A DNA stretch of 35,603 bases. Origin: an uncultured virus (IMG/VR IMGVR_UViG_3300005663_000039). Its lineage: Duplodnaviria > Heunggongvirae > Uroviricota > Caudoviricetes. Position numbers and translations under genes: made by a program. The stretch lies in the IMG/VR virus record IMGVR_UViG_3300005663_000039. One strand, written 5' to 3'. Positions within the stretch are counted from its first letter, which is position 1. Each line of letters begins with the position of its first letter. Under the pieces are notes generated by a model that was given only the letters and a program-made list of their open reading frames with translations, did no database searches and was not told the origin of the DNA. Of this stretch, positions 1,619-35,539 are shown in pieces.

Positions 1619-1619
1619 G

Positions 1620-2786: not shown

Positions 2787-2787
2787 G

Positions 2788-3215: not shown

Positions 3216-3220
3216 GAATT

Positions 3221-3378: not shown

Positions 3379-3392
3379 AAGGGAGGTGTCCA

Positions 3393-3488: not shown

Positions 3489-3502
3489 CACGGCGCCTTG
3501 AT

Positions 3503-3595
3503 CTGAGAAAGCCACTGTGGATGCAGTAGCAGCCTGTGAACGGTGTGAGCCGTTTAAGCTTCAGAAGCACAGGCCGGGGGCTTGCTCTAGCTCAG
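3503..3595 (+). ncRNA. Candidate multibranched RNA structure
   Basis: Nested pairings CTGAG/CTCAG, AAGCC/GGCTT, ACTG/CAGT, GCCTGTG/CACAGGC, AACGG/CCGTT. Confidence 0.35.
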
Positions 3596-3642
3596 AGGAC
3601 TAAAAGTATGAAGCGGGTAAGATGTTCAACCAATGAACAACT

Positions 3643-4176: not shown

Positions 4177-4274
4177 CTGATCTTCCAGTAGTCTCAACCA
4201 AAGGACAGGATTTGCTGCAGAAATTCGGCTTAATTCCTAAGCCGCCCCCCGTTATAGATGCATCTATGTTATCT
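3643..4274 (+). repeat. Protein-level direct repeat: 3643-3744 versus 4173-4274
   Basis: 30 of 34 amino acids identical, but only 9 of 34 codons identical (21 synonymous changes). Confidence 0.95.
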
Positions 4275-6088: not shown

Positions 6089-6143
6089 AAGTACCTGTTG
6101 ACCGAAGGAACAAAAATTAAACTTAATATCAAGGAGCTGCAGT

Positions 6144-6536
6144 ATGCCGAGAGTCAATCTAAACCTGACGGAGGCCGAGAGCCTAAAGCCGATCCCAGAA
6201 GATGCTTATCCCGCTACCGTAATGGAGTGTGGAGAGCTGGCCGAGGGGCCGAAGGCTCACTATGTCCCCGTGAAGGTTGCGATCTCCGAAGGCGAGTGTG
6301 AGGGGCGGACGTTCTACGTCAACCTGCCCATTGAGGGTAAGGGGGCTGGGATCTTCGTCGACTTTATCAACAAGTGCCTCGACACTGATTACGACGTTGA
6401 CGACTTGGAGGAACTCGCCTTCGACACCGATGAATTGATCGGTGCAGAGCTGATCATCAACATTAAGAACGAAGAGTACCCGAAGGGTTCGGGCGACATT
6501 CGTTCCGGTGTGAAGTCGACCGCTCGCGCGGCGTAA
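6144..6536 (+). CDS. DUF669-like single-stranded DNA-binding protein
   Basis: AAGGAG RBS; PIPEDAYPATV...EGRTF...ELIG pattern; typical partner of Sak4. Confidence 0.75.
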   Translation: MPRVNLNLTEAESLKPIPEDAYPATVMECGELAEGPKAHYVPVKVAISEGECEGRTFYVNLPIEGKGAGIFVDFINKCLDTDYDVDDLEELAFDTDELIGAELIINIKNEEYPKGSGDIRSGVKSTARAA

Positions 6537-6561
6537 CCCTTCTCCCTCCTTCTCAGTTAAC

Positions 6562-7158
6562 GTGCTAGATCGTCCTGTTCAGATAGCAGAAGACTTAACC
6601 CGCAGAGCTGACACACTTAGTATGCTCGGGGAGTATGTACTGATCGAGTGTAATCAGAATGACTTGATGATCGGTAGTCTTCATATTCCATTAGAGGCCG
6701 CAGAAGTATACCCTACCTCAGGGTGGGTATTCGCACTCGGCCCAAAAGTTCAAGAAGAGCTATCTGTAGGCGACTTCGTGTTGATTGAGGAGGAGGGAGT
6801 AGATATTGACCATACGTACTATGACATGTTCGAGATCATACTGCGCATGGGAGACGGAAGTCTCGAAACAATCTGGGCTGAGATCGAGGTCGAGCCTGTA
6901 ATCAGAGAGCACGTATCTACGTTCCGACAAGGTGGAGGACTGGACAGTACTATCTCGTTAAAGGACACCAGAGTTGACGGGTCGATCTCATTCAATTGCT
7001 CAGATGTGGTAGATTGGCAGATAGGCCAGATGGCTAACCCTATCTACAGTCTCACCTACGTTCCAGTCTTTATGTTCTTCTTCCTTAACGAAGACGACGA
7101 ACAAGCCCTTTTCTACGTGACCAAGCCGAATAAAATTATCTCTAGAGTGGAGTACTGA
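6562..7158 (+). CDS. GroES/Cpn10-like co-chaperonin with a large insertion
   Basis: LGEYVLIE...GSLHIP...SGWVFALGP...LSVGDFVLI and C-terminal KIISRVE match GroES strands; about 100 extra residues between them. Confidence 0.7.
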   Translation: MLDRPVQIAEDLTRRADTLSMLGEYVLIECNQNDLMIGSLHIPLEAAEVYPTSGWVFALGPKVQEELSVGDFVLIEEEGVDIDHTYYDMFEIILRMGDGSLETIWAEIEVEPVIREHVSTFRQGGGLDSTISLKDTRVDGSISFNCSDVVDWQIGQMANPIYSLTYVPVFMFFFLNEDDEQALFYVTKPNKIISRVEY

Positions 7159-8510
7159 TGACCCAAACTATCAGTCCTGCAGATATTGAAATCAAGCCAC
7201 GGCAGAGAAAGATCCTAACCCTGCCTCAAATTGAGAAGATGGCGGCCTCCATCGAGAAGTTTGGGCTGTTCAGTCCTCCTGTCATGGTGCCTGGGTCTGA
7301 GCCAGGAAAGGTACAACTCGTCTCCGGGTTCACTCGCTTGCAAGGTATGATGTACCTAAAGTGGGAGGAGATTCCATACACCTTGTACGAAGAAGCAGAT
7401 GAGATCACTATCAAGGAAATGGAGTTGGAGGAGAACATTCAGCGAACTGATCTCGAGTGGTGGGAGAAAGCTGAGGCTGTCGCTGAGATTCACGAGCTTC
7501 GCATGAGTCAAGACCCCACCTGGAATATGAGAAAGACAGCCGAGATGACAGGCGAGGCTCTCGGCACGGTCTCTCAATCAGTCCAGCTTCGGGATGAGGT
7601 GAAGACCAACCCTGAGATGAAGACTGAGAAGACCCTTCGTGGTGCTCTCCAGAAACTGGACGTCAAGAAGAAGCTGGTCGAGAAGAGGAAAGACATTGAA
7701 AGGAGGGCGAAGGGACTGACCCCATCGTTACGGGCCGAGATTATAGTCGGAGACGCGGCTGAGCTAATCAAGCTGGAGCCTGATGAGAGCTTCGATGCTA
7801 TAGTTACCAACCTTCCTTTCGGTATAGACCTTGAGTTCAAGGGTGGTCATAAGCCCTACGAAGATGACGAGCAGCTCATCATCGACCTAGTTCAAACTGT
7901 CGTGGTCGAGTCCTTTCGAGTCCTCAAAGATGACAGCTGGTTTGCAGCCTGGTTCGACATCAGGAAGATCACGTACTCCAATGCCCAGCTCCAGTTGTAT
8001 AAGAAGCTGGCAGGCTTGACGAAGCTGGCTGATTACAAGAAGTTGTTCTTCGACTCGATGGGCCTGAACTTCTGGCTTCAAGAAGCCGGCTTCTCGTATG
8101 TCACCCTTGTCCCTGCTCTCTGGGTTAAGCCAAACAAGACTCAGGGTATGATAGGTGATCCGAGAAAAGGTATGATTGTAGCTGCCGAAGCGATGGTCTT
8201 GGCATCGAAAGGTGGTGCCTTTCTCATGAAACAGGGACGGAACAATGTCTTTATCTACGACTCCCTCTCTGGGTCAGAGCGTGATTATAGTATGCAAATG
8301 CCAGCGGACCTCTGCACGGAGGTTGTTAGCATGGTTAGCCTTTCTGGGGGTAGAATACTCGACCCTTTCGCCGGATCAGGTTCGATTGGACTTGGAGCAC
8401 TTAACCGCGAGTGTGAGTTCAAAGGGTACGAGTTAAACCCAGAGGCTGCGTCTATAGGTAATATGCTTCTCAAGCAGCATCACTTAGCAGGGCAGGAGAA
8501 AGATGGCTGA
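7158..8510 (+). CDS. ParB-like domain + HTH + N6/N4 DNA methyltransferase fusion
   Basis: ParB: LVSGFTRL, ELEENIQRTDL; MTase in beta order: IVTNLPFG then ILDPFAGSGS. Confidence 0.88.
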   Translation: MTQTISPADIEIKPRQRKILTLPQIEKMAASIEKFGLFSPPVMVPGSEPGKVQLVSGFTRLQGMMYLKWEEIPYTLYEEADEITIKEMELEENIQRTDLEWWEKAEAVAEIHELRMSQDPTWNMRKTAEMTGEALGTVSQSVQLRDEVKTNPEMKTEKTLRGALQKLDVKKKLVEKRKDIERRAKGLTPSLRAEIIVGDAAELIKLEPDESFDAIVTNLPFGIDLEFKGGHKPYEDDEQLIIDLVQTVVVESFRVLKDDSWFAAWFDIRKITYSNAQLQLYKKLAGLTKLADYKKLFFDSMGLNFWLQEAGFSYVTLVPALWVKPNKTQGMIGDPRKGMIVAAEAMVLASKGGAFLMKQGRNNVFIYDSLSGSERDYSMQMPADLCTEVVSMVSLSGGRILDPFAGSGSIGLGALNRECEFKGYELNPEAASIGNMLLKQHHLAGQEKDG

Positions 8511-8817
8511 GCGAAGACCGCTGGGGGAATTTGAAGATCGGCAGATGATTCCATGGCTGGTGGGCTTGGGCTATCGCCTAGAACGCCTCGATGGAACAGA
8601 ACCACCCGAAATCCAGCAGATCATCGCTCGCCTGCGTGAGTTCGAGGGGACGGTGATTGAGGGGTGGGCGTGGCCCGAGGCGTTCCGGGCATTCAGGGAA
8701 GGACCGGATTATGCGTTGACGGTTTATCCTATGACCAACCAACACTCAAGTCATTCCCACGCCATCCCCCTCCTCATCCTCAAGAATCCCCAGGAGCCAG
8801 AAGACAATGAAAATTGA
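8503..8817 (+). CDS. Hypothetical protein
   Basis: AGGAG RBS; overlaps neighbours. Confidence 0.65.
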   Translation: MAERRPLGEFEDRQMIPWLVGLGYRLERLDGTEPPEIQQIIARLREFEGTVIEGWAWPEAFRAFREGPDYALTVYPMTNQHSSHSHAIPLLILKNPQEPEDNEN

Positions 8818-9022
8818 AGTACCTAACAAGAAGTTTGAAATGATGGACTTGATCCTTCCAACCCTAGACCTACCAGATCCCTGCTCGATCAAAATAGAGA
8901 TCAGAGATGATTCTGTCTTCCTGTATATCGGAGCAAGGGACTGGCAATGGGACTTTGGGGATGAAAGACTGGTAGGGTGTGGCACGACCGTCTCTCCTCA
9001 AGGAGACAAGGCTGATGAGTGA
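8807..9022 (+). CDS. Hypothetical protein
   Basis: RBS and overlap with neighbours. Confidence 0.65.
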   Translation: MKIEVPNKKFEMMDLILPTLDLPDPCSIKIEIRDDSVFLYIGARDWQWDFGDERLVGCGTTVSPQGDKADE

Positions 9023-9335
9023 TGATTTAACTAGACACCCTCTATATCGCACGCCCAGGAAGTCTATAGATGAACTTGAAAAAGAATATGAGACGGCCCG
9101 TCAAGAACGGGCGGAGCAAACTGAGCCGAAGAACGAGCGGGTGTGGGAATTTGACGATGGCTCTCGGTGGGAGTTGGGCGATAGCATGGCGGGTGGTGCT
9201 CATGCTGACAGCAGAACCATAAACGGTCAAATGGTACCCGGCTTCATCACGATGCGCATCGTCTCAGCTGATGGCGAGGAACAAGAGCACATGTATGTCC
9301 TCACCGCCGAGCCCCCAGCGAAGGAGGAGACATGA
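9015..9335 (+). CDS. Hypothetical protein
   Basis: AAGGAG RBS before ATG 9015. Confidence 0.6.
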   Translation: MSDDLTRHPLYRTPRKSIDELEKEYETARQERAEQTEPKNERVWEFDDGSRWELGDSMAGGAHADSRTINGQMVPGFITMRIVSADGEEQEHMYVLTAEPPAKEET

Positions 9336-9664
9336 GCACTTGGACAAAGCTAAAGCCCTTAGAGGGTGGGAATAATCCATGTCGGAACTGTCCCCCGATT
9401 TATCCCAAGCTCAAAATGCACAGACGGATTGCTGTAGGCTTCGGATTCGCTGGTGTGTCAAAAGGGGGCGAACAAGTTTGGACGGAGAACGGTAACGAGG
9501 AGTGGGCGGATATGCCCACGCTGATGACGTTCGAGAACATGGCTCGTAAGGACCCCGACCACAGTTGGGAAGTGGTAATGCACGGTCCCCTTCACGGCGA
9601 AACCTACCAACGTCAGGGTCGCAACCTTTGGGTGTTGATTGAGAAGAACGAAGGTTTCGCATGA
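9332..9664 (+). CDS. Conserved phage hypothetical protein
   Basis: GGAGG RBS; IAVGFG...DPDHSW...GPLHGETYQRQG...W pattern. Confidence 0.75.
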   Translation: MSTWTKLKPLEGGNNPCRNCPPIYPKLKMHRRIAVGFGFAGVSKGGEQVWTENGNEEWADMPTLMTFENMARKDPDHSWEVVMHGPLHGETYQRQGRNLWVLIEKNEGFA

Positions 9665-9689
9665 TTCCTCCCACCGAGCAGGAGCCAGG

Positions 9690-10235
9690 ATGATGGGTGA
9701 GCGATGCGGTACCTGCGACAGTACACTCATGAAATTCGGCGGCTACGGCAAACAGTGTGGAGTGTGCGGTCACCCGTGGATGCCCAGGATTGATCCCAAG
9801 CCCCCAGCAGCCACCGAAAGCGATACAAGCGGTGGGGGGGAGAAGAAATGTGAACTGGGATGCATCCTTGAGGCTCCCCACACTGGGACATCATGTAGGG
9901 GCTCGTTTGATCCACACAATGTCGGTGTATTAAGAGCCAAGGCCAAGGCCGACGCCAAGGCAGCCACCGAGGAGCGGGGAGAGCCCGAGAAGCCCATCCA
10001 GCTAGAAACTGATGTGGTGAAGCGTATCGTGCATTTCCGCAGCTTGAAGAAGGATTGGGATAGTTACGGCGCAGAGCCCATACCCGATGCGGTAGCAGAC
10101 CTCGCCTTGGTTGTCGTGCAGCGGATGGCGGGCGGCGTCCATGAAATCACTTGGGCCGGACCAACGAACGACGAAGGCATCCAACTAGATACCAAAAGCG
10201 GAATGGGAATCGAAGTGAGTAGATATGGCAACTAA
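9690..10235 (+). CDS. Composite hypothetical protein with N-terminal zinc ribbon
   Basis: CGTC...CGVC; C-terminal WDSYGAEPI module. Confidence 0.6.
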   Translation: MMGERCGTCDSTLMKFGGYGKQCGVCGHPWMPRIDPKPPAATESDTSGGGEKKCELGCILEAPHTGTSCRGSFDPHNVGVLRAKAKADAKAATEERGEPEKPIQLETDVVKRIVHFRSLKKDWDSYGAEPIPDAVADLALVVVQRMAGGVHEITWAGPTNDEGIQLDTKSGMGIEVSRYGN

Positions 10236-13553: not shown

Positions 13554-14153
13554 GTGACCGACCGCCCCTCGATGGAGGAGACGATGATGTGCGTGGCGAG
13601 GCTCATGGCCCGCCGGGCTACGTGCGCCCGTCTCAAGGTCGGCTGCGTGGTCGCCGACGCCCGGCTGACCGCGATCTACTCCATCGGCTACAACGGCAAC
13701 TACCGCGGCGGCCCCCACGCCTGCGATCGCGAGGAGCCCGGGAACTGCGGCTGCCTCCACGCCGAGGACAACGCGCTGGTCAAGCTCCGGACCGAGGAGC
13801 GCGGCCTGGTCCTGTTCACGACGATCTCCCCCTGTACCGCCTGCGCCAAGCGGATCGTGAACCAGGGGAACGTCGAGACCGTGTGGTACCAGGGACGGCA
13901 CCGTGACGAGGAGGCCGGCGTCGCGATCCTGAGGGCCGGCGGCGTGGAGGTGAGGGTGCTCGGCTCCGGGACCGGCGCCCAGGCCGAGGAGCCCGAGCTG
14001 CGGCTGTGTCTCCACTGCCGGACGAAGTACGAGGCCGACCCCGCCCTCCACGCCGGCGGCTACTGCCCCAGCTGCGGCTCCGCGAACTACGAACTGGCCG
14101 TGGCCAGCGTCTACGAGGGCGCGGGCGAGCTGAAGCGGCCGGTCGATGGCTGA
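13554..14153 (+). CDS. dCMP deaminase (ComEB/DCTD family) with extra C-terminal zinc ribbon
   Basis: RRATC...VGCV...GYNG, HAEDNAL and SPCTACAK catalytic motifs; tail CLHC...CPSCGS. Confidence 0.92.
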   Translation: MTDRPSMEETMMCVARLMARRATCARLKVGCVVADARLTAIYSIGYNGNYRGGPHACDREEPGNCGCLHAEDNALVKLRTEERGLVLFTTISPCTACAKRIVNQGNVETVWYQGRHRDEEAGVAILRAGGVEVRVLGSGTGAQAEEPELRLCLHCRTKYEADPALHAGGYCPSCGSANYELAVASVYEGAGELKRPVDG

Positions 14154-22062: not shown

Positions 22063-22677
22063 ATGCCGTACGTCGTATATGGGATATACCAGAAAGGTTC
22101 ACTGGTGTACGTCGGGCTGACCAAGCGGCCACTCAAACGTGAGCGTGAGCATAAACGAAAATTCAAGGGCGCAACGTTTAGGAGATTCGTACGGTGCGAT
22201 AGAGCGTATGCGCAGTGGCTTGAGAGGAAGCTCATCGACCTTTGGCGACCGAAGCGGAACCTTAACGCAGGTGGCTCAGGACCGGTGACCTACCGCCATA
22301 GCCCAGAGGCGAAATGTAGAATCAGCGAGGCCGTTAAGGTTCGTGTAGTCACTGACGATACAAGAAACAAAATGAGCGAAGCTGCTTTAAGAAGGCCCCC
22401 GGTATCTGAGGAAACTAGGCGTAAACTTCGTGGGTATAGGCACACCGAAAAAGCAAAAATTTGTATCGGAGAAAAGCTTAGGGGGGTTAAAAAGTCGCTT
22501 GAAGCTCGAAAAAATATGAGCCAATCGGCGCTTAAACGACCGCCTAGAACGCACAGTGACGAGACCCGGCGTCATATGAGTAGGGCGCAGAAGAAAAGGT
22601 TTAACGACCCTGACGCTAAACGCCGTCACCGAGAAGGACAGAGACGGAGACGAACTGCAGAAAAGGAGCGCAAATGA
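22063..22677 (+). CDS. Free-standing GIY-YIG homing endonuclease with NUMOD3 repeats
   Basis: VVYGIY...VYVGLT...R..EH...E...N; repeats of HSPEAKCRIS / SEETRRKL / HSDETRRHMS; AT-rich island. Confidence 0.88.
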   Translation: MPYVVYGIYQKGSLVYVGLTKRPLKREREHKRKFKGATFRRFVRCDRAYAQWLERKLIDLWRPKRNLNAGGSGPVTYRHSPEAKCRISEAVKVRVVTDDTRNKMSEAALRRPPVSEETRRKLRGYRHTEKAKICIGEKLRGVKKSLEARKNMSQSALKRPPRTHSDETRRHMSRAQKKRFNDPDAKRRHREGQRRRRTAEKERK

Positions 22678-23006
22678 AAAAAGGTAGAGTGTTCATTATC
22701 CAGGAGGATTCGCGCAAAAATTTCCTACCCGCTGCTGACTACGGCGAGCTGGTCTTTCTCCTGCCGGCCGGCGACCAGGTGTTCCTCAACGCGGTCCCCA
22801 CGATCCAGAAGATCAGGACCGCGTTGCGAGACTTCAGCGACGACGACTTCATCCTACCCAACGGTGACCCGGCGGGCATTGGGATCGCCTGCGTGGAGGC
22901 AGCGCGTGCCAACGGCGGTCGGTACGCGATGATAAAATTTGACCGCCAGATGAGCAAGGACCGCGGGGTGCCGGTGTATTACGTCGTCCCCTGCAACCAC
23001 GCCTGA
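22674..23006 (+). CDS. Conserved phage replication-module protein
   Basis: AAGGAG RBS; VFIIQE...YGELVFLLP...DFILPNGDP. Confidence 0.8.
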   Translation: MKKGRVFIIQEDSRKNFLPAADYGELVFLLPAGDQVFLNAVPTIQKIRTALRDFSDDDFILPNGDPAGIGIACVEAARANGGRYAMIKFDRQMSKDRGVPVYYVVPCNHA

Positions 23007-26190: not shown

Positions 26191-27698
26191 ACCAGGTGAC
26201 CAAGATCTTCGGCCCGCCGGGCACGGGGAAGACAACCACGCTCCTCAACCTTCTCGAAGAGGCGCTAGAAGAAGGCACTCCCCCTGAACGAGTCGCCTAC
26301 GTCACGTTCACCACGAAGGCCCGCCGCGAGGCGGTCAGCCGGACGGTCGAGCGGTTCGGGTTCACCGAGGAGCAGATGCCGTTCTTCCGGACGCTGCACT
26401 CCATCGCCTACCGGGAGCTGGAGGTCAGCGGCCCGATGATGATCCACCACGGCGAGCTGCGAGAGTTCTCGGAGCTGATCGGCATGGAGATGACGGGGCC
26501 GAGCCGCGCCACGGAGTCCGGTCTGACCATGACCAACGGCAACCTCCGCGGCGACCGGTTCCTGACGTTCGACCACCTCCGCCGGCACCGCGGTCAGACG
26601 ATCGAGGAGGGCTATCGCGGGTGGCGCGAGGACGAGGACCTCTTCATCACCCGGCACTTCTGCGAGACCTACGCGAGGTGGAAGACGGACGAGGGGCTGC
26701 TCGACTTCACCGACCTCCTGATCAACGTCGAGGGCCCGCTGCCGGTGGACGTCGTCCTCGTGGACGAGGCCCAGGACCTGAGCTGGCTCCAGTGGCGCAC
26801 GCTGGAGCGGCTCGCGGCCGACGCCGAGAGGGTGTACGTGGCGGGCGACGACGACCAGGCGATCTTCGCCTGGGCGGGCGCCGAGCCCGAGGAGCTGCTG
26901 ACGCTGCAGGGGGAGGTCGAGGTGCTCGGCCAGAGCTACCGCGTCCCCGCCGCGGTTCACGAGCTGGCCGGCCAGATGGTCAGCCGCATCCGGCGCCGGC
27001 AGCCCAAGGAGTGGAAGCCCCGCGACGAGGCCGGCGAGGTCCGCTGGCTGATGAGCCAGGAGAACGTGGACTACGACCGCGAGGGCTCGTACCTGGTGCT
27101 GTACCGGAACCACTACCTCGGCCAGGCGGTCGAGGCGCGCCTGCGGAGCGAGGGCGTCCCCTTCGGCCACGGCCAGCGGCCGACCGTCGGCGGCGCCTGG
27201 TCGCACCCCATCGTGCTGTGGGAGAGCCTGCGGAAGCAGGGCCGCGTCTCGCCCGCCCAGCTGCACGAGGTCTACGAGGCGATGACCGTGGGCCGCGGCG
27301 TCTCCCTGGACGCTCGCGCCCGGCTGGAGCGATGCGAGCGCGAGAAGGTGGACCTGGACACGGCACGGGAGGAGCTGGGCCTGCTCACGGACGAGCCGTG
27401 GTTCGAGGCGCTGGACAAGATCCCCGACGACGAGGTCAGCTACATCCGGCGGGTGGTCCGGCACCACGGGGCCAAGGCGCTGACGGACGCCCCCAAGGTC
27501 TTCCTCTCGACGATCCACGCGGCCAAGGGCGGCCAGGCCGATCACGTCGTCCTCCTGACCGACCTGAGCCGGGTGATCCAGCGCGAGATCCAGCGCGAGC
27601 CGGACCACGAGCGACGCGTCTTCTACGTCGGCCTGACCAGAGCGAAAGAAACCCTTCAGCTCATCGGCTTCGACAACCCCCTATTCTCTCATCACTGA
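26187..27698 (+). CDS. UvrD/Rep superfamily 1 helicase
   Basis: GPPGTGKT, VDEAQD, GDDDQAIF, QSYR, STIHAAKG, YVGLTRAK. Confidence 0.94.
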   Translation: MNQVTKIFGPPGTGKTTTLLNLLEEALEEGTPPERVAYVTFTTKARREAVSRTVERFGFTEEQMPFFRTLHSIAYRELEVSGPMMIHHGELREFSELIGMEMTGPSRATESGLTMTNGNLRGDRFLTFDHLRRHRGQTIEEGYRGWREDEDLFITRHFCETYARWKTDEGLLDFTDLLINVEGPLPVDVVLVDEAQDLSWLQWRTLERLAADAERVYVAGDDDQAIFAWAGAEPEELLTLQGEVEVLGQSYRVPAAVHELAGQMVSRIRRRQPKEWKPRDEAGEVRWLMSQENVDYDREGSYLVLYRNHYLGQAVEARLRSEGVPFGHGQRPTVGGAWSHPIVLWESLRKQGRVSPAQLHEVYEAMTVGRGVSLDARARLERCEREKVDLDTAREELGLLTDEPWFEALDKIPDDEVSYIRRVVRHHGAKALTDAPKVFLSTIHAAKGGQADHVVLLTDLSRVIQREIQREPDHERRVFYVGLTRAKETLQLIGFDNPLFSHH

Positions 27699-27708
27699 GG
27701 TAGCGATC

Positions 27709-27870
27709 ATGGCGTTCTACCTGGTGAGGTTACTGGATACGTGTCAAGCGTCCGGCTGTCTCAGGCAGGCTACCTACGAGGTCCGGAGCAGCGGGACCGT
27801 CTCGTACGGATGTTTCTGTAAAAGACACGCTGAACAGAAGAAGAAGCTGCTCGAAAAGGCCCCGAGATGA
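27709..27870 (+). CDS. Small zinc-finger protein (53 aa)
   Basis: GAGGT RBS; CQASGC...FCKRH; ATGA overlap with the next gene. Confidence 0.6.
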   Translation: MAFYLVRLLDTCQASGCLRQATYEVRSSGTVSYGCFCKRHAEQKKKLLEKAPR

Positions 27871-28967
27871 ACGCGCTCGGAATATATATTTTTGGAGGCG
27901 GTTTTTCCATCGGCATGCGCGCCGCCGGGTTCGACGTGCTGGGCCATCTCGAGGACGGCCCGTTCGGCGTGGACACGGTCCGGCAGAACATGCCCGGTAT
28001 CGAGGTCCACACGAACCCGGAGACGTGGCCCTTCGACGCGTACCGCGGCCGCGGCGTGAAGGTGGTGTTCTGCAACCCGCCCTGCGCCCCGTGGTCGGGC
28101 GCCGGCATCCGACCCAAGCGGATGATCGACCACGACTTCAAGGACAACTATCGTCACGACCCCCGGGTCAGCTGCGTCTACAACGCCTTCGACGCCATCC
28201 GGTACCTGCGCCCGTCGGTCTGGTGCTGGGAGTCCGTGCAGGGCGCCTTCCACCGGGGACGCGAGCTGTGTGACGAGCTGGCCGAGGAGGCGGTGGAGCT
28301 GGGCTACTCCGTGAGCTACGTCCTCCTGAACGGCGTCCACGTCGGGCTGCCCCAGCAGCGCCGCCGGTTCTTCTTCGTGGCGCACCGCGTCAAGATCGAC
28401 TGGGAGTACCCTCACCTGGAGCCTGACCAGCAGGTCTCGGTCACGCGGGCCTGGCGAGCGGCCGGTCTCCTCAGGTGTCGCGCCCACGTCGCCTTCCGTC
28501 ACATGGAGAGCGCCGGGGATCGGGCGATGATGGAGGGCTGTCCGCCGGGCCAGGCGCTCCGGCTCCACTGGGAGGCGAAGATGCGCGCCACCGTCGGGCC
28601 CGAGGAGACCTGGCCCCGCAACAAGCTGGGCGCCGTCATCGGTCGGCCCGCGTTCACGTACCGACGTCTGCGGCCGAACGTGCCGTGCAAGACCATGATG
28701 GGCGGCACCCACCTCGTTCATCCCACCGAGGACCGCTGGCTCAGCGTCAAGGAGTCGCAGGTCCTCTGCGGCTATCCCGTGGACTACGAGTTCTCGCCGC
28801 CCACGCCCGAGGCGTGCTACCCAGAGGTGGCGCAGGCGGTGCTGCCGACCGTCGGCGAGTGGCTGGGCCACAACCTTCGCCGAGCCGTGGAACGCGGCCG
28901 GCGTCAACGCGGTCGGCGGTTCGTCGTCGACCTGGAGAAGGACCACACTGAGGAGATCATCACGTGA
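27867..28967 (+). CDS. DNA cytosine-C5 methyltransferase-like enzyme with atypical cofactor motifs
   Basis: PPC (IV), WESV (VI), PQQRRRFF (VIII), RWLSVKES...GYP (IX); motif I YIFGGG, motif X AQAV. Confidence 0.87.
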   Translation: MNALGIYIFGGGFSIGMRAAGFDVLGHLEDGPFGVDTVRQNMPGIEVHTNPETWPFDAYRGRGVKVVFCNPPCAPWSGAGIRPKRMIDHDFKDNYRHDPRVSCVYNAFDAIRYLRPSVWCWESVQGAFHRGRELCDELAEEAVELGYSVSYVLLNGVHVGLPQQRRRFFFVAHRVKIDWEYPHLEPDQQVSVTRAWRAAGLLRCRAHVAFRHMESAGDRAMMEGCPPGQALRLHWEAKMRATVGPEETWPRNKLGAVIGRPAFTYRRLRPNVPCKTMMGGTHLVHPTEDRWLSVKESQVLCGYPVDYEFSPPTPEACYPEVAQAVLPTVGEWLGHNLRRAVERGRRQRGRRFVVDLEKDHTEEIIT

Positions 28968-29695
28968 CCAACTTCGATTCCATTTACCGGATGCACCAGC
29001 ACCACCGCCTGCCGATCGAGACGGGCCCCACGTTCCTGTCCACGACCGACCAGCTCTTTCGGTCGGGCTTCATGCGCGAGGAGCTGCTGGAGTTCGACGC
29101 GGCCTGCCAGCGGGACGACCTGCCCGAGGCGGCAGACGCGCTGATCGACCTGGTGGTCGTGGCCATGGGCACCGCCGTGATGATGGGCCTCCCCTGGCAC
29201 GCGCTCTGGGCCGACGTCCAGCGAGCCAACATGTCGAAGGAGCGCGTGGTCAGCGAGCGCGCCTACGGCGGGTTCGACCTGGGCAAGCCCGAGGGCTGGG
29301 AGCCGCCGCGCTCGGCGCGCATCATCGACCGGGCCGTAGCGAGCGGCGTCCCCGCGCCGGTCTACTCGGCCGGGCCCAGGATCGTGTGCCTCTGCGGGTC
29401 CACGAAGTTCAAGGAGGCCTACGCTCGCTGGAACCGGCACTTCACCCTCGCGGGCTTCATGGTGCTCAGCGTGGGGTTCTTCTCCCACGCTGACGAGGAG
29501 GACGTGGACGCCACCACGAAGGCGGAGCTGGACCAGCTCCACCTACACAAGATCGACCTGGCTGACGAGGTGGGCGTCGTTAACGTGGGCGGCTACGTGG
29601 GCTCGTCCACCCAGGCCGAGATCGACTACGCCCGCTCACGAGGCAAGCCCGTGACGTTCCTAGAAAAGGAGACGACAGATGCTGACGATAGTTGA
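28964..29695 (+). CDS. MazG/DR2231-like dNTP pyrophosphatase fused to a nucleoside 2-deoxyribosyltransferase-like domain
   Basis: EELLE...DALID...ANMSK...KPEGWEPP; then VCLCGSTKF...KIDLAD...GYVGSSTQAEIDYA...GKPV. Confidence 0.85.
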   Translation: MTNFDSIYRMHQHHRLPIETGPTFLSTTDQLFRSGFMREELLEFDAACQRDDLPEAADALIDLVVVAMGTAVMMGLPWHALWADVQRANMSKERVVSERAYGGFDLGKPEGWEPPRSARIIDRAVASGVPAPVYSAGPRIVCLCGSTKFKEAYARWNRHFTLAGFMVLSVGFFSHADEEDVDATTKAELDQLHLHKIDLADEVGVVNVGGYVGSSTQAEIDYARSRGKPVTFLEKETTDADDS

Positions 29696-30578
29696 AGGCC
29701 CCGACGGCGCCGGTAAGAGCACGTTGGCCGACGACCTGGCCTACCGCTGGATCGGCGTCAACCGCCACCATCAGGGACCGTACCATCAGAACGTGTTGAC
29801 CGAGACGCTGGGCGCGATGTCCCGGAACCTGTACCAGCAGTCGCACGTGCTCTGCGACCGGCTCCACCTGGGCGAGCGGATCTACGGCCCGGTCTTCCGG
29901 CAGCACGACATGCTCGGCGACGACGGTCAGCGCGTGCTGGAGCGCGCCCTCCTCGGCCTGGGCGGCGTGGTCCAGGTCGTCTGCTACCCGCCCTACGACC
30001 CGCACGTCCGGGACGCGTGGCTGGCTCGCGAGCAGCTGGAGATGCTCGACACCCTCGACCAGCTGGAGTGGGTCTACCGGCTCTACAAGACGCAGGGGTC
30101 GATGCTGCCCACGACCACGTACGACTGGACCCGTCACACGGTGGAGCGGCTGTGTGACGACCTGGTCACGATCCGCTCGCCCGGCAACCACGGCCCGGGC
30201 GTCGGCTGGTTCGAGCACACCTCCGTCCTGCTCGTCGGCGAGCGGGCCAACGGGATCAACGTCAACCTGCCGGGCCCGCCGCTCCCGTTCGTCAGCACCA
30301 ACGGCTGCAGCGCGTGGCTCTCCGAGAAGCTGACCGGCGTGGACGAGCGCTGGCTGTACTGGGTCAACGCCCTCAGGCCGGACGGCCAGCCCGAGGACCC
30401 CAGCTTCATCGAGCGGCTGAACCCCCTCGGGATCATCGGGCTGGGCAAGGTGGCCCAGGACTGGCTGACGTCCCACGGCTTCGAGCACGAGCCCATGGAC
30501 CACCCTCAGTTCGCCAAGCGCTTCCATCACGGCGAGCCCTACCCCATCAAGGAGGCCATCGATGCCCTTCGTCGCTGA
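29679..30578 (+). CDS. Thymidylate-kinase-like P-loop NMP kinase fused to a uracil-DNA-glycosylase-superfamily domain
   Basis: IVEGPDGAGKST, DRLHLGERIYG; then LLVGER...PF...VN...IIGLGKVA...HP. Confidence 0.8.
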   Translation: MLTIVEGPDGAGKSTLADDLAYRWIGVNRHHQGPYHQNVLTETLGAMSRNLYQQSHVLCDRLHLGERIYGPVFRQHDMLGDDGQRVLERALLGLGGVVQVVCYPPYDPHVRDAWLAREQLEMLDTLDQLEWVYRLYKTQGSMLPTTTYDWTRHTVERLCDDLVTIRSPGNHGPGVGWFEHTSVLLVGERANGINVNLPGPPLPFVSTNGCSAWLSEKLTGVDERWLYWVNALRPDGQPEDPSFIERLNPLGIIGLGKVAQDWLTSHGFEHEPMDHPQFAKRFHHGEPYPIKEAIDALRR

Positions 30579-31803
30579 CTTCGAGGTCGACAGCCTGACG
30601 GACAGCTACGCCGCGATCGTACGCAAGGTCCTAGATGAGGGCGACGAGGTCTCACCCCGAGGCCTCAGGACCCGGGAGCTACGAGGCGTGACCATTCTGA
30701 TTCACGACCCCTCACGCGTCGTGCCGATCGGGACGGGGCGTAAGCTACGACTAGAGATCGGCGCCGCCGAGTCGGTACAGCTGATAGCCGGGCTCTCAGA
30801 CGCAGCCCAGCTGATCTCGATCACGAAGAACTTCACACAGTTCGTTGAGAGTGACCGTCTGCGCGGCGCCTACGGTCCCCGCACCTACGAGCAGTTTCCC
30901 CGACTCATCGAGCTGCTGGGACGAGACCCCGACACGCGTCAAGCCTGCGCGTTGATCTGGCGCCCGTGGGACAACAGGCTACCGTCCAAGGACATTCCCT
31001 GTACGCTCCAGTTTCAGTTCTTCATCAGGAACGGCCGACTCGACATGATCGCTACGATGCGGTCAAACGACGTCTTCTGGGGCCTGCCCTACGACGCCTG
31101 GATGTTCACAAACCTTCAACATGCAGTGGCCTACGCCCTGGCGGTTGACGTCGGTTGGTACCTGCATCAAACGGGAAGCCTACACGCCTACGTAGATCGT
31201 GACCTGGACGCGCTAAACGCGCTCCACGAGCCAAGCCGCGCCGAGGACTTACCGCCCATGTTCGTCGTACCTCGTCGTCTTCAGGTGGACAGCGGTGACC
31301 GCGCCGAGCAGCGGTGGGCGCGGGTAGTCAGATGGGCGAGAACCGCGGCCGGCGTGCCCGGGAGAAAAGGGAGCATGAGCACCAACCTCCCAGCCTCAGC
31401 GCGATGGTATCAAGACCAGCTTCAACCTCATCACTCTGACGGACTGTTGTGTAACACCTGCAGGTACGTGCTGCCGCGTACCGATGAGCACTACTGGCAG
31501 GGACACCAGACCGCCTCATCTCACCGATGTCGACGATGCTCGATCCTGATCAAGTACGACCTGGGGCCAGACGACTATCAACTACTTCTGCTGAGTCAAA
31601 ACGGCCTCTGCGGGATCTGCCAACGTGACGACCGTAGGTTGGTGATCGACCACGATCACCGAACCGGGGAGGTGCGCGGCCTCCTGTGTCGCGGGTGTAA
31701 CGTCTCGCTCGGTATGCTCGACGACGGGGCTTTCCTTCAGGCGGCACAGACGTATCTTCAAGCCACCCAGACAGCAGAGATAAAACAAGGAGGAGAACGA
31801 TGA
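30562..31803 (+). CDS. Thymidylate-synthase-fold (d)CMP hydroxymethylase/methylase-like enzyme fused to endonuclease VII
   Basis: GAYGPR, DTRQA, DIPC (C147), MRSNDVFWGLPYD (D178), GSLHAY; C-terminal QNGLCGIC...IDHDH..GEVRGLLCRGCN. Confidence 0.87.
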   Translation: MPFVADFEVDSLTDSYAAIVRKVLDEGDEVSPRGLRTRELRGVTILIHDPSRVVPIGTGRKLRLEIGAAESVQLIAGLSDAAQLISITKNFTQFVESDRLRGAYGPRTYEQFPRLIELLGRDPDTRQACALIWRPWDNRLPSKDIPCTLQFQFFIRNGRLDMIATMRSNDVFWGLPYDAWMFTNLQHAVAYALAVDVGWYLHQTGSLHAYVDRDLDALNALHEPSRAEDLPPMFVVPRRLQVDSGDRAEQRWARVVRWARTAAGVPGRKGSMSTNLPASARWYQDQLQPHHSDGLLCNTCRYVLPRTDEHYWQGHQTASSHRCRRCSILIKYDLGPDDYQLLLLSQNGLCGICQRDDRRLVIDHDHRTGEVRGLLCRGCNVSLGMLDDGAFLQAAQTYLQATQTAEIKQGGER

Positions 31804-32651
31804 ATCAGATGGCGACTGACGCCCTCGGCGAGAAGGTCGACGTGGGCACCCACGGATACGTCCAGCTCGTGGACGTGATGGGCGACGACGACCGGGTGGT
31901 GGACGCCGCCCGCATCAGCTACGGGAGGCACGGCGAGCGAGACGAGGCGGGTGACCGCCGCCTCCTGCGCTACATGATGCGGCACCACCACACGACGCCC
32001 TTCGAGCAGTGCGAGATGGTCTTCATCGTCAAGGTCCCGATGGACACCTGGCGCCAGTGGATCCGGCACCGAACGGCCAGCGTCAACGAGTACTCGACGC
32101 GGTATACCGCGGCGATCGACGACACGGCCGTGACGGCGCCTGACGCCTGGCGGCTCCAGAGCCAGGCGAACAGGCAGGGCTCGGATCAGGGCGTGGCGTC
32201 GAACGTCGGCGAGCGGCTGAGCCAGGAGGAGGTGGCCTTCCAGCAACGAGCGCGGTGGATATATAAGAGCCGGCTTGACGCGGGCGTGGCCCGAGAGCAG
32301 GCGCGGAAGGACCTGCCGCTCTCGACCTACACCCTGGCGTTCTGGAAGATCGACGTCCACAACCTCATGCACTTCCTGGGGCTGCGCCTGGACAGCCACG
32401 CCCAGGAGGAGATCCGCGAGTACGCCAACGTGGTCCTCTACTTCTTTCACCTGGCGTTCCCCACGATCAGCGACGCCTTCCACGACTACCGTACCGCGGC
32501 GGTCACGTTCAGCCGAACGGAGCTGCTGGCGCTGCGCGGCCTGGTGCTCACGCCCAACTGGAGCCTGGCGCGAGACGAGGTGCGGGAGTACGGCCTGGAG
32601 GGGCGCGAGGCCGACGAGTTCCTGGCCAAGCTGGAGGCGATCCGTGGCTGA
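31800..32651 (+). CDS. thyX: FAD-dependent thymidylate synthase
   Basis: AARISY, HTTPFE, RHRTASVNEYSTRY signature, AREQAR, HAQEEIR. Confidence 0.96.
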   Translation: MNQMATDALGEKVDVGTHGYVQLVDVMGDDDRVVDAARISYGRHGERDEAGDRRLLRYMMRHHHTTPFEQCEMVFIVKVPMDTWRQWIRHRTASVNEYSTRYTAAIDDTAVTAPDAWRLQSQANRQGSDQGVASNVGERLSQEEVAFQQRARWIYKSRLDAGVAREQARKDLPLSTYTLAFWKIDVHNLMHFLGLRLDSHAQEEIREYANVVLYFFHLAFPTISDAFHDYRTAAVTFSRTELLALRGLVLTPNWSLARDEVREYGLEGREADEFLAKLEAIRG

Positions 32652-32892
32652 CCCCGGCGACCTGAAAGAGCTGAGACGGCGCGCCGGCATCTACCTGCGC
32701 GGGATCGGGTTGACGGACGGCCAGGTCAGCGGCTTCTTCCGCAGCAAGCGCTGCCGGGTCTACGAGCTGCGCGAGGGTCGTCATCTCCGGCTGAGCTGCT
32801 TCGACCGCGACCTGAACCGGCGGCTCCACGAGAAGTACGGCATCGGCTCAAGAGAATTCCGCGAGACGATGTGGACGAGGACGCGTGGCTGA
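32644..32892 (+). CDS. Hypothetical basic protein
   Basis: GGAGG RBS before GTG; overlaps both neighbours by 8 nt. Confidence 0.65.
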   Translation: MADPGDLKELRRRAGIYLRGIGLTDGQVSGFFRSKRCRVYELREGRHLRLSCFDRDLNRRLHEKYGIGSREFRETMWTRTRG

Positions 32893-35539
32893 GTTCGTCG
32901 ACCTGGCCCGCGTCGATCGGATCGGCCTGGACACCGAGACGACCGGGGTGACGTACGACGACCGGCTGGTGGGGCTCTCCGTCTCGCTGCCGGACGGCTC
33001 CGACCACTACTACCGCTGGGGCCACGAGATGGGCGGCAACAACTGCTCCAAGCGGGAGGTCCTCCGGTGGGTCAAGCGGGAGGTGAACCGCTCTGACCTC
33101 ACCGTCTTCATGCACTCCGCCGGCTTCGACCTCCGGATGCTGGCCTACGAGCTGGGCCACGAGCACCCGTTCCCGCGAGCCCGGGTGGAGGAGACCGGGT
33201 TCATGGCCGCGCTCCTGAACGAGCTGGAGCCGGACCTCACGCTCGACGGCCTGGGTCAGCGCCACATCGAGATGGAGAAGGAGGGCGACGAGCTGTGGGA
33301 CTTCTGCTCGCAGGCGTTCGGCGGCGGCGCCACCCGCAAGGCCCAGGCCAAGAACATCTGGCGGGCCCACGGCGACGTGGTCGAGCCCTACGCGAAGCGG
33401 GACAGCCGCATCACGCTGGGGCTCGGTGACCACCTCGGCCCGCGGCTGGGCGAGGAGGGACTGGCCGACGTCTACGAGATGGAGCTACGGCTGATCCCGA
33501 TCCTCCTGCGGATGCACATGGTCGGCGTGCCGGTGGACGTGAACAAGGCGCTGGCCCTGAAGGATAAGCTGGGCCGGCTCCTCACCCGGGCCGAGCGGAA
33601 GTGGGAGAGTGACTTCGGTGACGTCAGCTACACCAGCACGGCCCAGCTCGCGACGCTGTTCGACAAGCTGGGCCTCCCGTACCGTCGGAACCAGCCCACG
33701 GAGAAGATGCTGGAGAAGGGCATCACGGAGGGCAACGCGTCGATCACCAAGGACGACCTGGAGTACGTGCAGCACCCGGTCGCCGAGGCGATCACGCGGA
33801 TGAAGAAGCTCAAGCACTTCAAGGGCACGTTCATCGACAACTACGTCCTCGCGAACGTCGACCCCAACGGCGTCATCCACGGCGAGTTCCACCCGCTCCG
33901 GAACCCGCGGTTCGGCACCCGGTCCGGCCGGTTCTCCAGCGGCGGCGGCCTCAACCTCCAGAACGTGCCGGCCCGGGACGAGGAGTGGGCGCCGCTGATC
34001 CGCGGGCTCTACGTCCCGGCGAGCCGGACGCAGGTCTGGGAGAAGGCCGACTACTGTCTGGTGGGCGAGACGATGGTGGAGACCCTCACCGGGCCCAGGC
34101 GAATCGACAGCCTGACGGCCGGCGACAGGGTGTTTACCTGGCACGCGGGCCGGGTGTCCTGGGGAGAGGTGTCGAGGTGGGCGCGGATCGGAAGGGCCCC
34201 CACGTTCAAGGTCACGCTCGACAACGAGGGGTCGTTCACGGCCACGGGCGACCACGAGATGGTGCTGAGAGACGGCGGCAAGGTGAGGGTTGAGGACCTG
34301 AGGCCCGGCGTCGGCTTAGCCGCCTTTCGTCGAGGCTCCGCCGGGGCTGGCTACGAGACCGTCTACAGCGCCTCCGCCTTCGAGTACCGCTATACCCACG
34401 ACCTGGTGGCCGAGGCGTACCACGGGCCCAAGCCGGTGGGCGCGGAGGTCCACCACGTAGACGAGGCCAAGCGAAACAACTCGCCGAGGAACCTGGCTTA
34501 CGTCGACCAGACGGAGCACAGGGCGCTCCACGCCTTCAAGACCGTCGACGAGCAGACGCGCCTTCGCGTGCTCAGGTCGGCCCTGAGACGGCGCCGCTCC
34601 TACGCGGGTAAGGGCAACCCCAACTGGCGAGGCGGCAAGGAAGATCAAACCTGCGTGGACTGCGGTGACGCGTTCTATCAGTGGCCGAGTCAGGTAAATG
34701 TACGTTGCGTCTCCTGTCGCCGGTGCGGTGCGCCCGCTGCCCTGAACCACCGGGTCGTCAGCGTCGAGCCAGCTGGAGAGAGAGTCGTCTACCACGTCAC
34801 GGTGGAGGGGGACCACAACTTCGCCCTCTCTTGTGGAGTGTTTAGTAAAAATTCTCAGATCGAGTTCCGGTACCTGGCCCACTACGCCGGCGGCCAGCTC
34901 GCCCGGGCCTACAACGAGGACCCGGACATCGACTTCCACCAGATATGCGCGGAGCTGGTCGGCATCCCGCGACGCCCGGCCAAGAACATCAACTTCGGGA
35001 TCGTCTACGGGATGGGCAAGAAGCTGATGGCCGCGAAGCTCGGCGTCAGCCTCCACGAGGCGGCGCTCCTCCTGGAGGAGTACCACGACCGCCTGCCCGA
35101 GGTGAGCCGCCTCTACAACCGCGCCGACCGCCGGGCGAACCAGCGCGGCTACATCGTCACCTGGGGCGGGCGGAAGCGCCGGTTCGAGAAGCGCGGCCGC
35201 GGCTACGCCCACACCCACAAGGCGCTCAACGCCCTGCTCCAGGGCAGCGCGGCCGACCTGATGAAGAAGGCGATGATCTCCGTCGCCGACGGCCTGGACT
35301 GGGAGACGACGCCCATGCACCTGACCGTCCACGACGAGCTGGACTTCAGCGTGCCCCGGGAGAAGCGCGCCCGGGGCCGGTTCAACCGGGTGCTCCGCGA
35401 GAAGATGGAGGACTTTCAGCTCCGCGTCCCGGTGGTGGTCGACATCGAGTTTGGAGAGGACTGGGGCAGCTGCAAGCCAGCCGAGGAGGGCACCTGGCGC
35501 AAGCGGCGGGCTGACCTGCCCAAGAGGGCGGAGGCGTGA
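32885..35539 (+). CDS. polA: Family A DNA polymerase (3'-5' exonuclease + polymerase) containing an intein
   Basis: LDTETTG (ExoI), RSGRFSS..NLQNVP, ADY/SQIEFR (motif A, split), AKNINFGIVYG (B), TVHDEL (C). Confidence 0.95.
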   Translation: MAEFVDLARVDRIGLDTETTGVTYDDRLVGLSVSLPDGSDHYYRWGHEMGGNNCSKREVLRWVKREVNRSDLTVFMHSAGFDLRMLAYELGHEHPFPRARVEETGFMAALLNELEPDLTLDGLGQRHIEMEKEGDELWDFCSQAFGGGATRKAQAKNIWRAHGDVVEPYAKRDSRITLGLGDHLGPRLGEEGLADVYEMELRLIPILLRMHMVGVPVDVNKALALKDKLGRLLTRAERKWESDFGDVSYTSTAQLATLFDKLGLPYRRNQPTEKMLEKGITEGNASITKDDLEYVQHPVAEAITRMKKLKHFKGTFIDNYVLANVDPNGVIHGEFHPLRNPRFGTRSGRFSSGGGLNLQNVPARDEEWAPLIRGLYVPASRTQVWEKADYCLVGETMVETLTGPRRIDSLTAGDRVFTWHAGRVSWGEVSRWARIGRAPTFKVTLDNEGSFTATGDHEMVLRDGGKVRVEDLRPGVGLAAFRRGSAGAGYETVYSASAFEYRYTHDLVAEAYHGPKPVGAEVHHVDEAKRNNSPRNLAYVDQTEHRALHAFKTVDEQTRLRVLRSALRRRRSYAGKGNPNWRGGKEDQTCVDCGDAFYQWPSQVNVRCVSCRRCGAPAALNHRVVSVEPAGERVVYHVTVEGDHNFALSCGVFSKNSQIEFRYLAHYAGGQLARAYNEDPDIDFHQICAELVGIPRRPAKNINFGIVYGMGKKLMAAKLGVSLHEAALLLEEYHDRLPEVSRLYNRADRRANQRGYIVTWGGRKRRFEKRGRGYAHTHKALNALLQGSAADLMKKAMISVADGLDWETTPMHLTVHDELDFSVPREKRARGRFNRVLREKMEDFQLRVPVVVDIEFGEDWGSCKPAEEGTWRKRRADLPKRAEA
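34055..34852 (+). mobile_element. Intein (266 aa) with HNH endonuclease, inserted in polymerase motif A
   Basis: Starts CLVGETMV; block B TGDH; ends VYHVTVEGDHNFALSCGVFSKN followed by Ser; internal HDLVAEAY...VHHVDE...NN...NL. Confidence 0.93.

Follow-up and report, generated by a model that had tools for sequence, protein, structure and literature searches.

The question raised by this locus is what a ThyA-fold enzyme does in a phage that also encodes a true flavin-dependent thymidylate synthase, ThyX, next to it. The locus lies in a 35,603-nucleotide stretch of DNA from an uncultured virus of the Caudoviricetes (IMG/VR record IMGVR_UViG_3300005663_000039), which is called here the window, and to which all positions refer unless another record is named. 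The ThyA-like gene occupies 30562..31803 on the + strand and the ThyX gene 31800..32651 on the same strand (PF02511, Thy1, E 5.2e-47, 160.6 bits against a cut-off of 24.8), so that the stop of the former and the start of the latter overlap by 4 bases. It had originally been predicted that the ThyA-like protein is not a redundant thymidylate synthase but a cytidylate-modifying enzyme, which automatic annotation would mislabel as thyA. The analysis described below agrees with this prediction, and makes it probable that the ThyA-fold domain is a hydroxymethylase converting deoxycytidylate (dCMP) to 5-hydroxymethyl-dCMP.

Translation of 30562..31803 gave a single continuous open reading frame (ORF) of 413 amino acids, preceded by the ribosome-binding site AAGGAGG 7 nucleotides 5' of the ATG. 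According to the ORF list and Pfam matches, the polypeptide consists, from N- to C-terminus, of a ThyA-fold domain, a helical linker, a Zn-ribbon and an endonuclease VII domain. The span first assigned to the gene (30562..31200) covered the ThyA-fold domain but missed the endonuclease VII part, the ORF ending at 31803. The ThyA-fold catalytic domain (residues 1-220, 30562..31221, +), the predicted dCMP 5-hydroxymethylase, was recognized by PF00303 (Thymidylat_synt) over residues 15-215 with E 2.5e-19 and 69.9 bits against a gathering cut-off of 24.3, the alignment spanning profile positions 2-216 of 266, and it also matched phrog_5131 (E 3.8e-42). An identical protein (100% over residues 1-413) is encoded by a separate viral record of 63.8 kb, G001, which matches window positions 9670-35601 at 99.985% and carries terminase, portal, capsid, tail and lysis genes in its remaining part.

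The catalytic nucleophile Cys147 (codon TGT, 31000..31002, +) corresponds to C146 of E. coli ThyA, and the base-specificity residue Asp178 (codon GAC, 31093..31095, +) to N177 of E. coli ThyA and D179 of T4 gp42. Translation confirmed that the two residues are 31 positions apart, Asp178 being the final residue of the motif RSNDVFWGLPYD (residues 167-178). The residues quoted for the reference enzymes were checked in their sequence records and found as claimed: C146, RSCDVFLGLPFN and N177 in E. coli ThyA, and C148 and D179 in T4 gp42, both with a spacing of 31. Three further sites are diagnostic. Asp144 (30991..30993, +), L143 in E. coli ThyA, marks a hydroxymethyl as opposed to a methyl product. 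Thr148 (31003..31005, +) corresponds to H147 of the E. coli enzyme, and is Thr in T4 gp42 and Asn in the hydroxymethylases of deoxyuridylate (dUMP). In the triplet Ser168-Asn169-Asp170 (31063..31071, +) Ser168 is as in deoxyribose-preferring enzymes.

The diagnostic positions were read from an alignment with enzymes of known or reported product. At positions 58, 94, 126, 143, 146, 147, 166, 167, 168, 169, 173, 177, 205, 207 and 209 of E. coli ThyA the residues of the window protein are E, Y, R, D, C, T, R, S, N, D, G, D, S, H and Y, respectively, and T4 gp42, the dCMP hydroxymethylase of phage T4, is identical to it at all 15. The dUMP hydroxymethylases SPO1 gp29 and PaMx11 gp51 differ from it at 147 (Asn instead of Thr) and at 177 (Asn instead of Asp), PaMx11 gp51 additionally at 205 (Asn instead of Ser). 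The 5-hydroxy-dCMP synthase of RB69 (gp48) differs at 143 (Glu), 168 (Gln), 169 (Asn), 173 and 209, and E. coli ThyA at 143 (Leu), 147 (His), 168, 177 (Asn) and 205. In the cytidylate (CMP) 5-hydroxymethylase MilA of Streptomyces rimofaciens, whose residues were taken from the HMMER match alignment only, Ala176 and Lys133' correspond to Ser168 and Arg126 of the window protein.

Published rules allow these differences to be translated into a substrate and a product (articles are cited by PMC accession). N177D has been linked to dCMP specificity, an acidic residue in place of L143 to a hydroxymethyl product, and D169N to the 5-hydroxy-dCMP (5hodCMP) synthases (PMC13326640). Ser167 and Arg126 favour deoxyribose, and MilA has Ala and Lys there (PMC5175136). 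In MetaGPA, a study in which viral contigs with modified cytosine were selected by experiment, 177 and, in second place, 147 were the top differential positions of the thymidylate-synthase family (PMC8670742). The window protein has Asp at 177, an acidic residue at 143 and the equivalents of Ser167 and Arg126', the combination described for dCMP hydroxymethylases. The other assignments failed. With Asp178, Asp144 and Thr148 the protein does not have the Asn177/Leu143/His147 set of canonical ThyA, and Asp178 and Thr148 also separate it from the dUMP hydroxymethylases (Asn at 177, and Asn at 147 in two examples). It retains Asp170, in contrast to the Asn that replaces Asp169 in 5hodCMP synthases, and it has Ser168 and Arg126, not the Ala (for Ser167) and Lys (for Arg126') of MilA and BcmA. 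Since all applicable published rules agree, the predicted reaction is from dCMP to 5-hydroxymethyl-dCMP.

Homologues of the protein numbered 278 at E <= 1e-5, and conservation was counted in the best 120 of them (identity 40-100%). Asp178, Cys147, Thr148, Ser168 and Asp170 are each kept in 120/120, as are the equivalents of the catalytic set (C147, E70, Y104, R167, H208 and Y210); Asp144 and Arg126 do not vary among the 45 sequences aligned. Because all of the best 120 homologues keep the same active-site residues, Asp178 is not a chance substitution. In the databases the homologues bear the name 'thymidylate synthase', which is the mislabelling that had been foreseen. The specific family models did not endorse this name: seven NCBIfam thymidylate-synthase equivalogs matched the window protein, and none reached its cut-off (scores include 73.4 bits against 174.55 for the best, 56.8 against 327, and 54.0 against 108.35).

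The AlphaFold2 model of the 413-residue protein, built on 45 sequences, had a mean predicted local distance difference test score (pLDDT) of 91.9 and a predicted template modelling score (pTM) of 0.90. MilA was the top match in the Protein Data Bank (PDB) by sequence (E 1.8e-18). Similarly, when the model was compared with the PDB by Foldseek, ranks 1-7 were all taken by MilA chains, with E values from 2.2e-17 to 2.7e-16, ~305 aligned columns and a TM by target of 0.70-0.72; they were followed by the dCMP monooxygenase of HY126 and by thymidylate synthases of the ordinary kind. Asp177, Thr147, Asp143, the kept Asp169, the equivalog scores and the MilA relatives together argue for a cytidylate-modifying enzyme. 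The proposed grouping with MilA-type cytosine-acting enzymes held for the nearest structures, but Ser168 and Arg126 point to dCMP rather than CMP as the substrate.

A maximum-likelihood tree of the ThyA domain was built from 45 rows, comprising 35 of the 120 homologues and 10 references; the protein of phage AXL3 (see below) and the remaining 85 homologues are outside it. The window protein was placed inside a 35-row clade, every member of which has Asp. The neighbours are a four-row Asp clade, containing PW916 and MW202510, and the SPO1 gp29/PaMx11 gp51 pair, which has Asn (support 100/99), and the joining support among these three groups is weak (82/63). T4 gp42 paired with E. coli ThyA; the two branches measure 4.3 and 3.2 changes per site, and the pairing was flagged as a possible false join. 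The phylogeny proposed as a check thus gave a divided answer, the window clade being all-Asp but its nearest relatives being dUMP hydroxymethylases, with gp42 on an unreliable long branch. T4 gp42 (246 amino acids), in spite of the identical active site and Cys-to-Asp spacing, is only ~23% identical to the window enzyme overall, does not group with it in the tree, and lacks both the MilA-like C-terminal helical extension and the endonuclease VII domain. Judged by these comparisons, the window enzyme is gp42-like by active site, yet is a member of a distinct lineage of pyrimidine hydroxymethylases with the shape of MilA, in which the 147/177 pair separates Asp forms from Asn forms.

In the predicted reaction Cys147 would attack C6 of dCMP, Asp178 would bind and protonate the N3/N4 face of cytosine, and 5,10-methylene-tetrahydrofolate would give its methylene group to C5. 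Water let in at Asp144 (Leu in true thymidylate synthases) would then quench the exocyclic methylene, and no hydride transfer would take place. Products of other genes of the window could complete the pathway. By a T4-like route a MazG-like NTPase would convert dCTP to dCMP, a hydrolysis that is the role of gp56 in T4; the dNMP-kinase-like protein encoded upstream would phosphorylate the modified dNMP to the diphosphate; and host NDP kinase and the phage polymerase PolA would place 5-hydroxymethylcytosine (5hmC) into what becomes virion DNA. ThyX, the likely source of the phage's own dTMP, and dCMP deaminase would supply ordinary dTMP and keep dTTP up. The logic of this pathway is that of T4: an NTPase, a hydroxymethylase, a dNMP kinase, a polymerase of the phage's own and a separate source of dTMP. 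T4 dTMP comes from the ThyA-type td, whereas here it would come from ThyX, and unlike in T4, no glucosyltransferase or other glycosyltransferase was detected by Pfam in the window or G001. 5-Hydroxymethyl-dCMP is a familiar phage means of hiding cytosines from host nucleases.

Five genes on the + strand overlap or abut one another, and the ThyA-like gene is the fourth of them. The first (27867..28967) codes for a C-5 cytosine DNA methyltransferase (PF00145, E 2.5e-22), the second (28964..29695) for a MazG/PRA-PH-type NTP pyrophosphohydrolase with an extra C-terminal domain (PF01503, E 7e-11; phrog_671, phrog_18404), and the third (29679..30578), which overlaps the start of the ThyA-like ORF by 17 bases, for a P-loop dNMP/thymidylate-kinase-like protein, also with an extra C-terminal domain (phrog_761, E 1.9e-10). 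ThyX is the fifth. Downstream, also on the + strand, lies the gene of a family A DNA polymerase containing an intein with an HNH endonuclease (32885..35539; PF00476, PF13392, PF14890, PF13403); the Hint_2, Intein_splicing and HNH_3 matches fall between residues ~391 and 655. The dCMP deaminase gene is at 13554..14153 (+; PF00383, E 1.1e-14; phrog_174, E 2.3e-35), and upstream in the window, besides this deaminase, a UvrD-type helicase, an AEP primase and an SNF2 helicase are encoded, from which the context is read as a phage replication and nucleotide-metabolism module.

Some features of the two genes preceding the ThyA-like ORF were noted separately. The C-terminal ~110 residues of the MazG/PRA-PH protein matched only nucleoside 2-deoxyribosyltransferase, and that below the threshold (E 0.095). 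The C-terminal ~140 residues of the kinase-like protein are conserved and have no Pfam match. The atlas neighbours of the latter protein are viral thymidylate-kinase clusters, in some of which uracil-DNA glycosylase (UDG, PF03167) occurs in 12-100% of the members. In the PDB sequences nothing was found for it under E 0.24. It was also considered as a DNA kinase; only the P-loop, however, is common with PaMx11 gp49, a 5-hydroxymethyl-deoxyuridine (5-hmdU) DNA kinase (5-HMUDK; E 0.069), and therefore no DNA-kinase call was made for 29679-30578.

The arrangement recurs in related viruses. Eighty IMG/VR loci were picked by a pattern that requires Asp, so they are uninformative on the frequency of Asp; neighbours were identified by single-sequence phmmer at E < 1e-5, and the counts are lower bounds. 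In at least 55 of the 80 loci the gene immediately preceding ThyA(Asp) is a homologue of the kinase-like gene. The metagenomic phage MW202510 has the annotated order methyltransferase, NTPase, kinase, ThyA(Asp), deaminase, polymerase, and most of this order was found again in the cultured phages PW916 and AXL3. The gene order of this module is that of the window, except that the window has ThyX in the place of the deaminase, whose gene is 16 kb away. The AXL3/PW916-type proteins (266-272 amino acids) lack a nuclease domain, unlike the 413-residue window protein. AXL3 gp28 has the signature of the window enzyme apart from Ser at 168. As a separate observation, the gene of PW916 annotated 'deoxyuridylate hydroxymethyltransferase' (record L094, 3280-4098) and that of AXL3 annotated 'thymidylate synthase' (L096, 1043-1852) carry Asp177/Thr147/Asp143, and because of this signature they are probably mis-named dCMP hydroxymethylases.

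Independent information on cultured and uncultured relatives comes from the literature. AXL3 DNA was refractory to 35 of 37 restriction enzymes and was cut by the other two, TasI and Tru1I, whose sites contain only A/T; this phage, too, encodes ThyX (PMC7504290). In MetaGPA several families were enriched in the contigs selected for modified cytosine as compared with unselected ones (PMC8670742): Thymidylat_synt (109 against 303), dCMP_cyt_deam_1 (99 against 429), PRA-PH (50 against 179), Thy1 (49 against 275) and Thymidylate_kin (14 against 191). Endonuclease_7 was also enriched (11 against 151, corrected p 0.013; PMC8670742, supplementary table 2). The ThyA(Asp177) homologues described there share with the window enzyme Asp177, a changed residue 147 and the company of PRA-PH, deaminase, ThyX and a thymidylate-kinase-like gene. 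Since the enriched families are present in the window operon, the operon is a textbook case of the published signature.

The second part of the ORF is a Zn-ribbon plus endonuclease VII domain (residues 288-405, 31423..31776, +). PF02945 (Endonuclease_7) matched residues 328-400 with E 1e-18 and 67.4 bits against a gathering cut-off of 23.6, and phrog_2914 matched residues 288-405 with E 1.2e-24. There are four CxxC motifs, at residues 297, 323, 350 and 376, and a DHDH motif at 363; the CxxC pairs at 350 and 376 and the DHDH are the putative Zn-binding and metal-site catalytic residues of endonuclease VII. By these motifs the domain looks intact, and would be of the four-way-junction resolvase/HNH-like kind. 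The fusion is real and no assembly artefact: the reading frame is unbroken, model confidence stays high throughout, and both Pfam domains occur together in 16 of the 120 best homologues (48-100% identical in the ThyA part), most of which sit in the window's own subclade of the tree. A WY...CxxC ribbon ahead of the nuclease is common to 40 of the 120, and many of those inspected have no nuclease core. In one 405-residue homologue (P0065) a MazG-like C-terminal domain was suspected by eye, but Pfam at E <= 0.001 gave only PF00303. Among the titles and abstracts listed by a literature search there was no description of a fusion of endonuclease VII with a hydroxymethylase or thymidylate synthase, and nothing relevant on hydroxymethylases of actinophages or Streptomyces phages. 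'Endonuclease VII' is absent from the main text of PMC8670742 and present once in its supplementary table 2.

Most likely the endonuclease VII part is either a phage DNA debranching enzyme (junction resolvase) or a mobile nuclease that became fused in frame. The G+C content at third codon positions (GC3) of the whole ORF 30562-31803 is 0.72, as compared with 0.90-0.94 in four flanking genes. Owing to this lower value the ORF looks more recently acquired than its neighbours, which suggests that the whole fused gene came by horizontal transfer. A compositionally foreign ORF and an HNH intein in the adjacent PolA fit a mobile, homing-type nuclease. As a third role, the nuclease may be functionally coupled to DNA modification. 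The enrichment of Endonuclease_7 in MetaGPA is compatible with such a role, although it could merely reflect shared ancestry.

Several observations weigh against assigning the window enzyme to the dCMP hydroxymethylases. Its close relatives are proteins without known activity or DNA chemistry, AXL3 gp28 being only 31.6% identical. T4 dCMP hydroxymethylase structures were absent among the best 50 Foldseek matches listed, and in the tree the window clade adjoins the dUMP hydroxymethylases, away from T4 gp42, if only at the support of 82/63. A dCMP deaminase is directly downstream in at least 69 of the 80 related loci, an arrangement that is also compatible with phages containing 5-hydroxymethyluracil (hmU) (PMC8989533). 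The C5-cytosine methylase of the same operon would find no substrate in DNA fully substituted with 5hmC, and DNA_methylase showed no enrichment in the modified contigs of MetaGPA (6 against 846; PMC8670742). As a C5 methylase requires unmodified cytosine, the replacement of cytosine may be partial.

A further point of this kind concerns a gene outside the window. The near-identical record G001 encodes at 27361-28326 (L007:7364-8326:-) a stand-alone protein of 321 amino acids that matches HMUDK_hel (PF18723, E 4e-35), the helical domain of 5-hmdU DNA kinase, and relatives of this protein adjoin Asn-type ThyA homologues. Its phage relatives include PaMx11 gp50, encoded between gp49, a proven 5-hmdU DNA kinase, and the hydroxymethylase gp51, as well as the product of a gene that in a Bacillus phage bears the annotation 'aGPT-pyrophosphorylase clade 1'. 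A locus search with the single G001 sequence gave eight pattern matches, none of which was confirmed. With an alignment of homologues 80 IMG/VR and 80 metagenome loci were gathered, some contigs being in both sets. A ThyA-like gene was found within 10 kb of the HMUDK_hel homologue in 22 of the 80 IMG/VR and 43 of the 80 metagenome loci. These ThyA-like neighbours have Asn at 177 in 20/22 and 39/43 cases, respectively, and Asp in none, the residue being unreadable in 2 and 4. G001 itself holds one PF00303 gene only, and that is of the Asp type. PaMx11 gp49 and gp46 had no match in G001, which is weak evidence because the record is rated 84% complete. Three possibilities offer themselves: that the HMUDK_hel protein acts on 5hmC-containing DNA, that 5-hydroxymethyl-dUMP is formed from deaminated 5-hydroxymethyl-dCMP, or that the record lacks a partner gene. 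In an extended form of the first two, 5hmC would not be the end product. The HMUDK_hel protein would act on 5hmC or hmU DNA in a cytosine-derived counterpart of thymidine hypermodification, and the endonuclease VII domain would couple the supply of modified nucleotide to the cutting of branched or unmodified DNA. We regard this combination as unlikely.

It is rather improbable that the enzyme is a dUMP hydroxymethylase, or that its 5-hydroxymethyl-dCMP is deaminated to 5-hydroxymethyl-dUMP, to feed a hypermodification of the thymidine type. The phage-record matches of known activity are SPO1-type dUMP hydroxymethylases, the closest being SPO1 gp29 (35.8% identity, E 7e-28). SPO1 gp29 and PaMx11 gp51, which form the neighbouring clade of the tree, resemble the window protein in Asp at 143 and in a long C-terminal extension. 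The homology of the G001 HMUDK_hel protein to PaMx11 gp50, and the dCMP deaminase in the window and in the related loci, point the same way. Against this, the two enzymes have Asn at 147 and 177, where the window protein has Thr and Asp like T4 gp42, and their RSND...N loop is one residue longer (spacing 32). Asp178 is kept in every one of the 120 homologues, the adjoining ThyX already makes dTMP, and homologues of the P-loop 5-HMUDK and of aGPT-Pplase2 were not found in G001. The restriction pattern of AXL3 DNA, resistant to enzymes with G/C-containing sites and cut at A/T sites (PMC7504290), also weighs against this reading.

The chances are slim, too, that the enzyme is a dCMP methyltransferase yielding 5-methyl-dCMP. 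Such an enzyme exists: Xanthomonas phage XP12 has a dCMP methyltransferase making 5-methyl-dCMP. Moreover, Asn-to-Asp mutants of true thymidylate synthases (N177D/N229D) methylate dCMP (cited in PMC8670742), PDB entry 1njc is among both the sequence and the fold matches of the window protein, and the residue rule distinguishing methyl from hydroxymethyl products is correlative. However, in the alignment, made without an XP12-type enzyme, Asp144 stands in place of Leu143, the residue thought to keep water out, and the nearest structures are those of hydroxymethylases. The Pfam alignment, furthermore, ends at profile position 216 of 266. The C-terminal ThyA segment absent from this match is the one that shuts over the folate so that hydride can be transferred.

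Two other activities on cytosine nucleotides were considered, and both are very improbable. A CMP hydroxymethylase of the MilA type, serving a nucleoside secondary metabolite or an RNA-related role, would account for MilA (PDB 5jnh, 5b6d, 5b6e, 5jp9) being the best solved relative by sequence and by fold and for its having, like the window protein, Asp at 143 and 177. The sub-threshold match in the neighbouring MazG-like protein is to nucleoside 2-deoxyribosyltransferase, the fold of MilB. However, the ribose residues of MilA are replaced by Ser168 and Arg126, as in T4 gp42 and ThyA, and the operon around the gene is one of phage replication, with a DNA polymerase at its end, whereas MilA belongs to an antibiotic cluster. 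A flavin-dependent 5hodCMP synthase of the RB69 gp48/HY126 AfhB type would likewise have Asp at 177 and an acidic residue at 143, and PDB 9iqc and 9iqu came at ranks 8 and 11 of the fold search. On the other hand, D169N is missing, Asp170 being present in all of the best 120 homologues; Gly173 and Tyr209 are unlike those of RB69 gp48; and there is no glycosyltransferase by Pfam in the window or in G001. Finally, a redundant ordinary thymidylate synthase, as the automatic annotation has it on the strength of the PF00303 score above gathering and of the names of the homologues, is hardly credible for a protein that differs from E. coli ThyA at five active-site positions, falls short of all seven NCBIfam equivalogs and has ThyX translationally coupled downstream.

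The window as a whole is probably chimeric, which does not affect the ThyA-EndoVII ORF, located 20 kb from the junction. Positions 1-9896 match, at 100% identity, the end of another viral contig (L257, 47.8 kb, ~50% GC). The first 9.7 kb of the window (~50% GC), with genes for an exonuclease, a Sak4-like annealase and a ParB-N6/N4 methylase fusion, are absent from G001. From 9670 on, the sequence is that of a phage with 67% GC, and the junction is at 9670-9896. Another contig, L177, switches between high and low GC in the same shared stretch (window 10664), in the opposite sense. These data suggest either chimeric assembly across a short stretch common to two phages or true mosaicism. The low-GC part (2418-2786) and the high-GC part (22674-23006) each contain a Pam3_gp32-like gene, which fits two related replication modules derived from different phages. 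The relatives of the window primase, at ~31% identity, belong to phages of Proteobacteria.

The principle that Asp177 homologues of ThyA found beside ThyX, deaminase and NTPase/PRA-PH mark cytosine-modifying phages was already published in 2021 (PMC8670742), and therefore the gain from the dCMP hydroxymethylase assignment is correct annotation for a large uncultured clade, the 278 homologues counted above. Less ordinary are the recurrent fusion of a putative hydroxymethylase with endonuclease VII, and the pairing of an Asp-type enzyme with an HMUDK_hel protein of the kind associated with thymidine hypermodification. If the enzyme is a dCMP hydroxymethylase, the DNA of the phage is predicted to carry 5hmC or a derivative of it, and the presence of 5hmC would change the restriction, CRISPR and sequencing chemistries that can be used.

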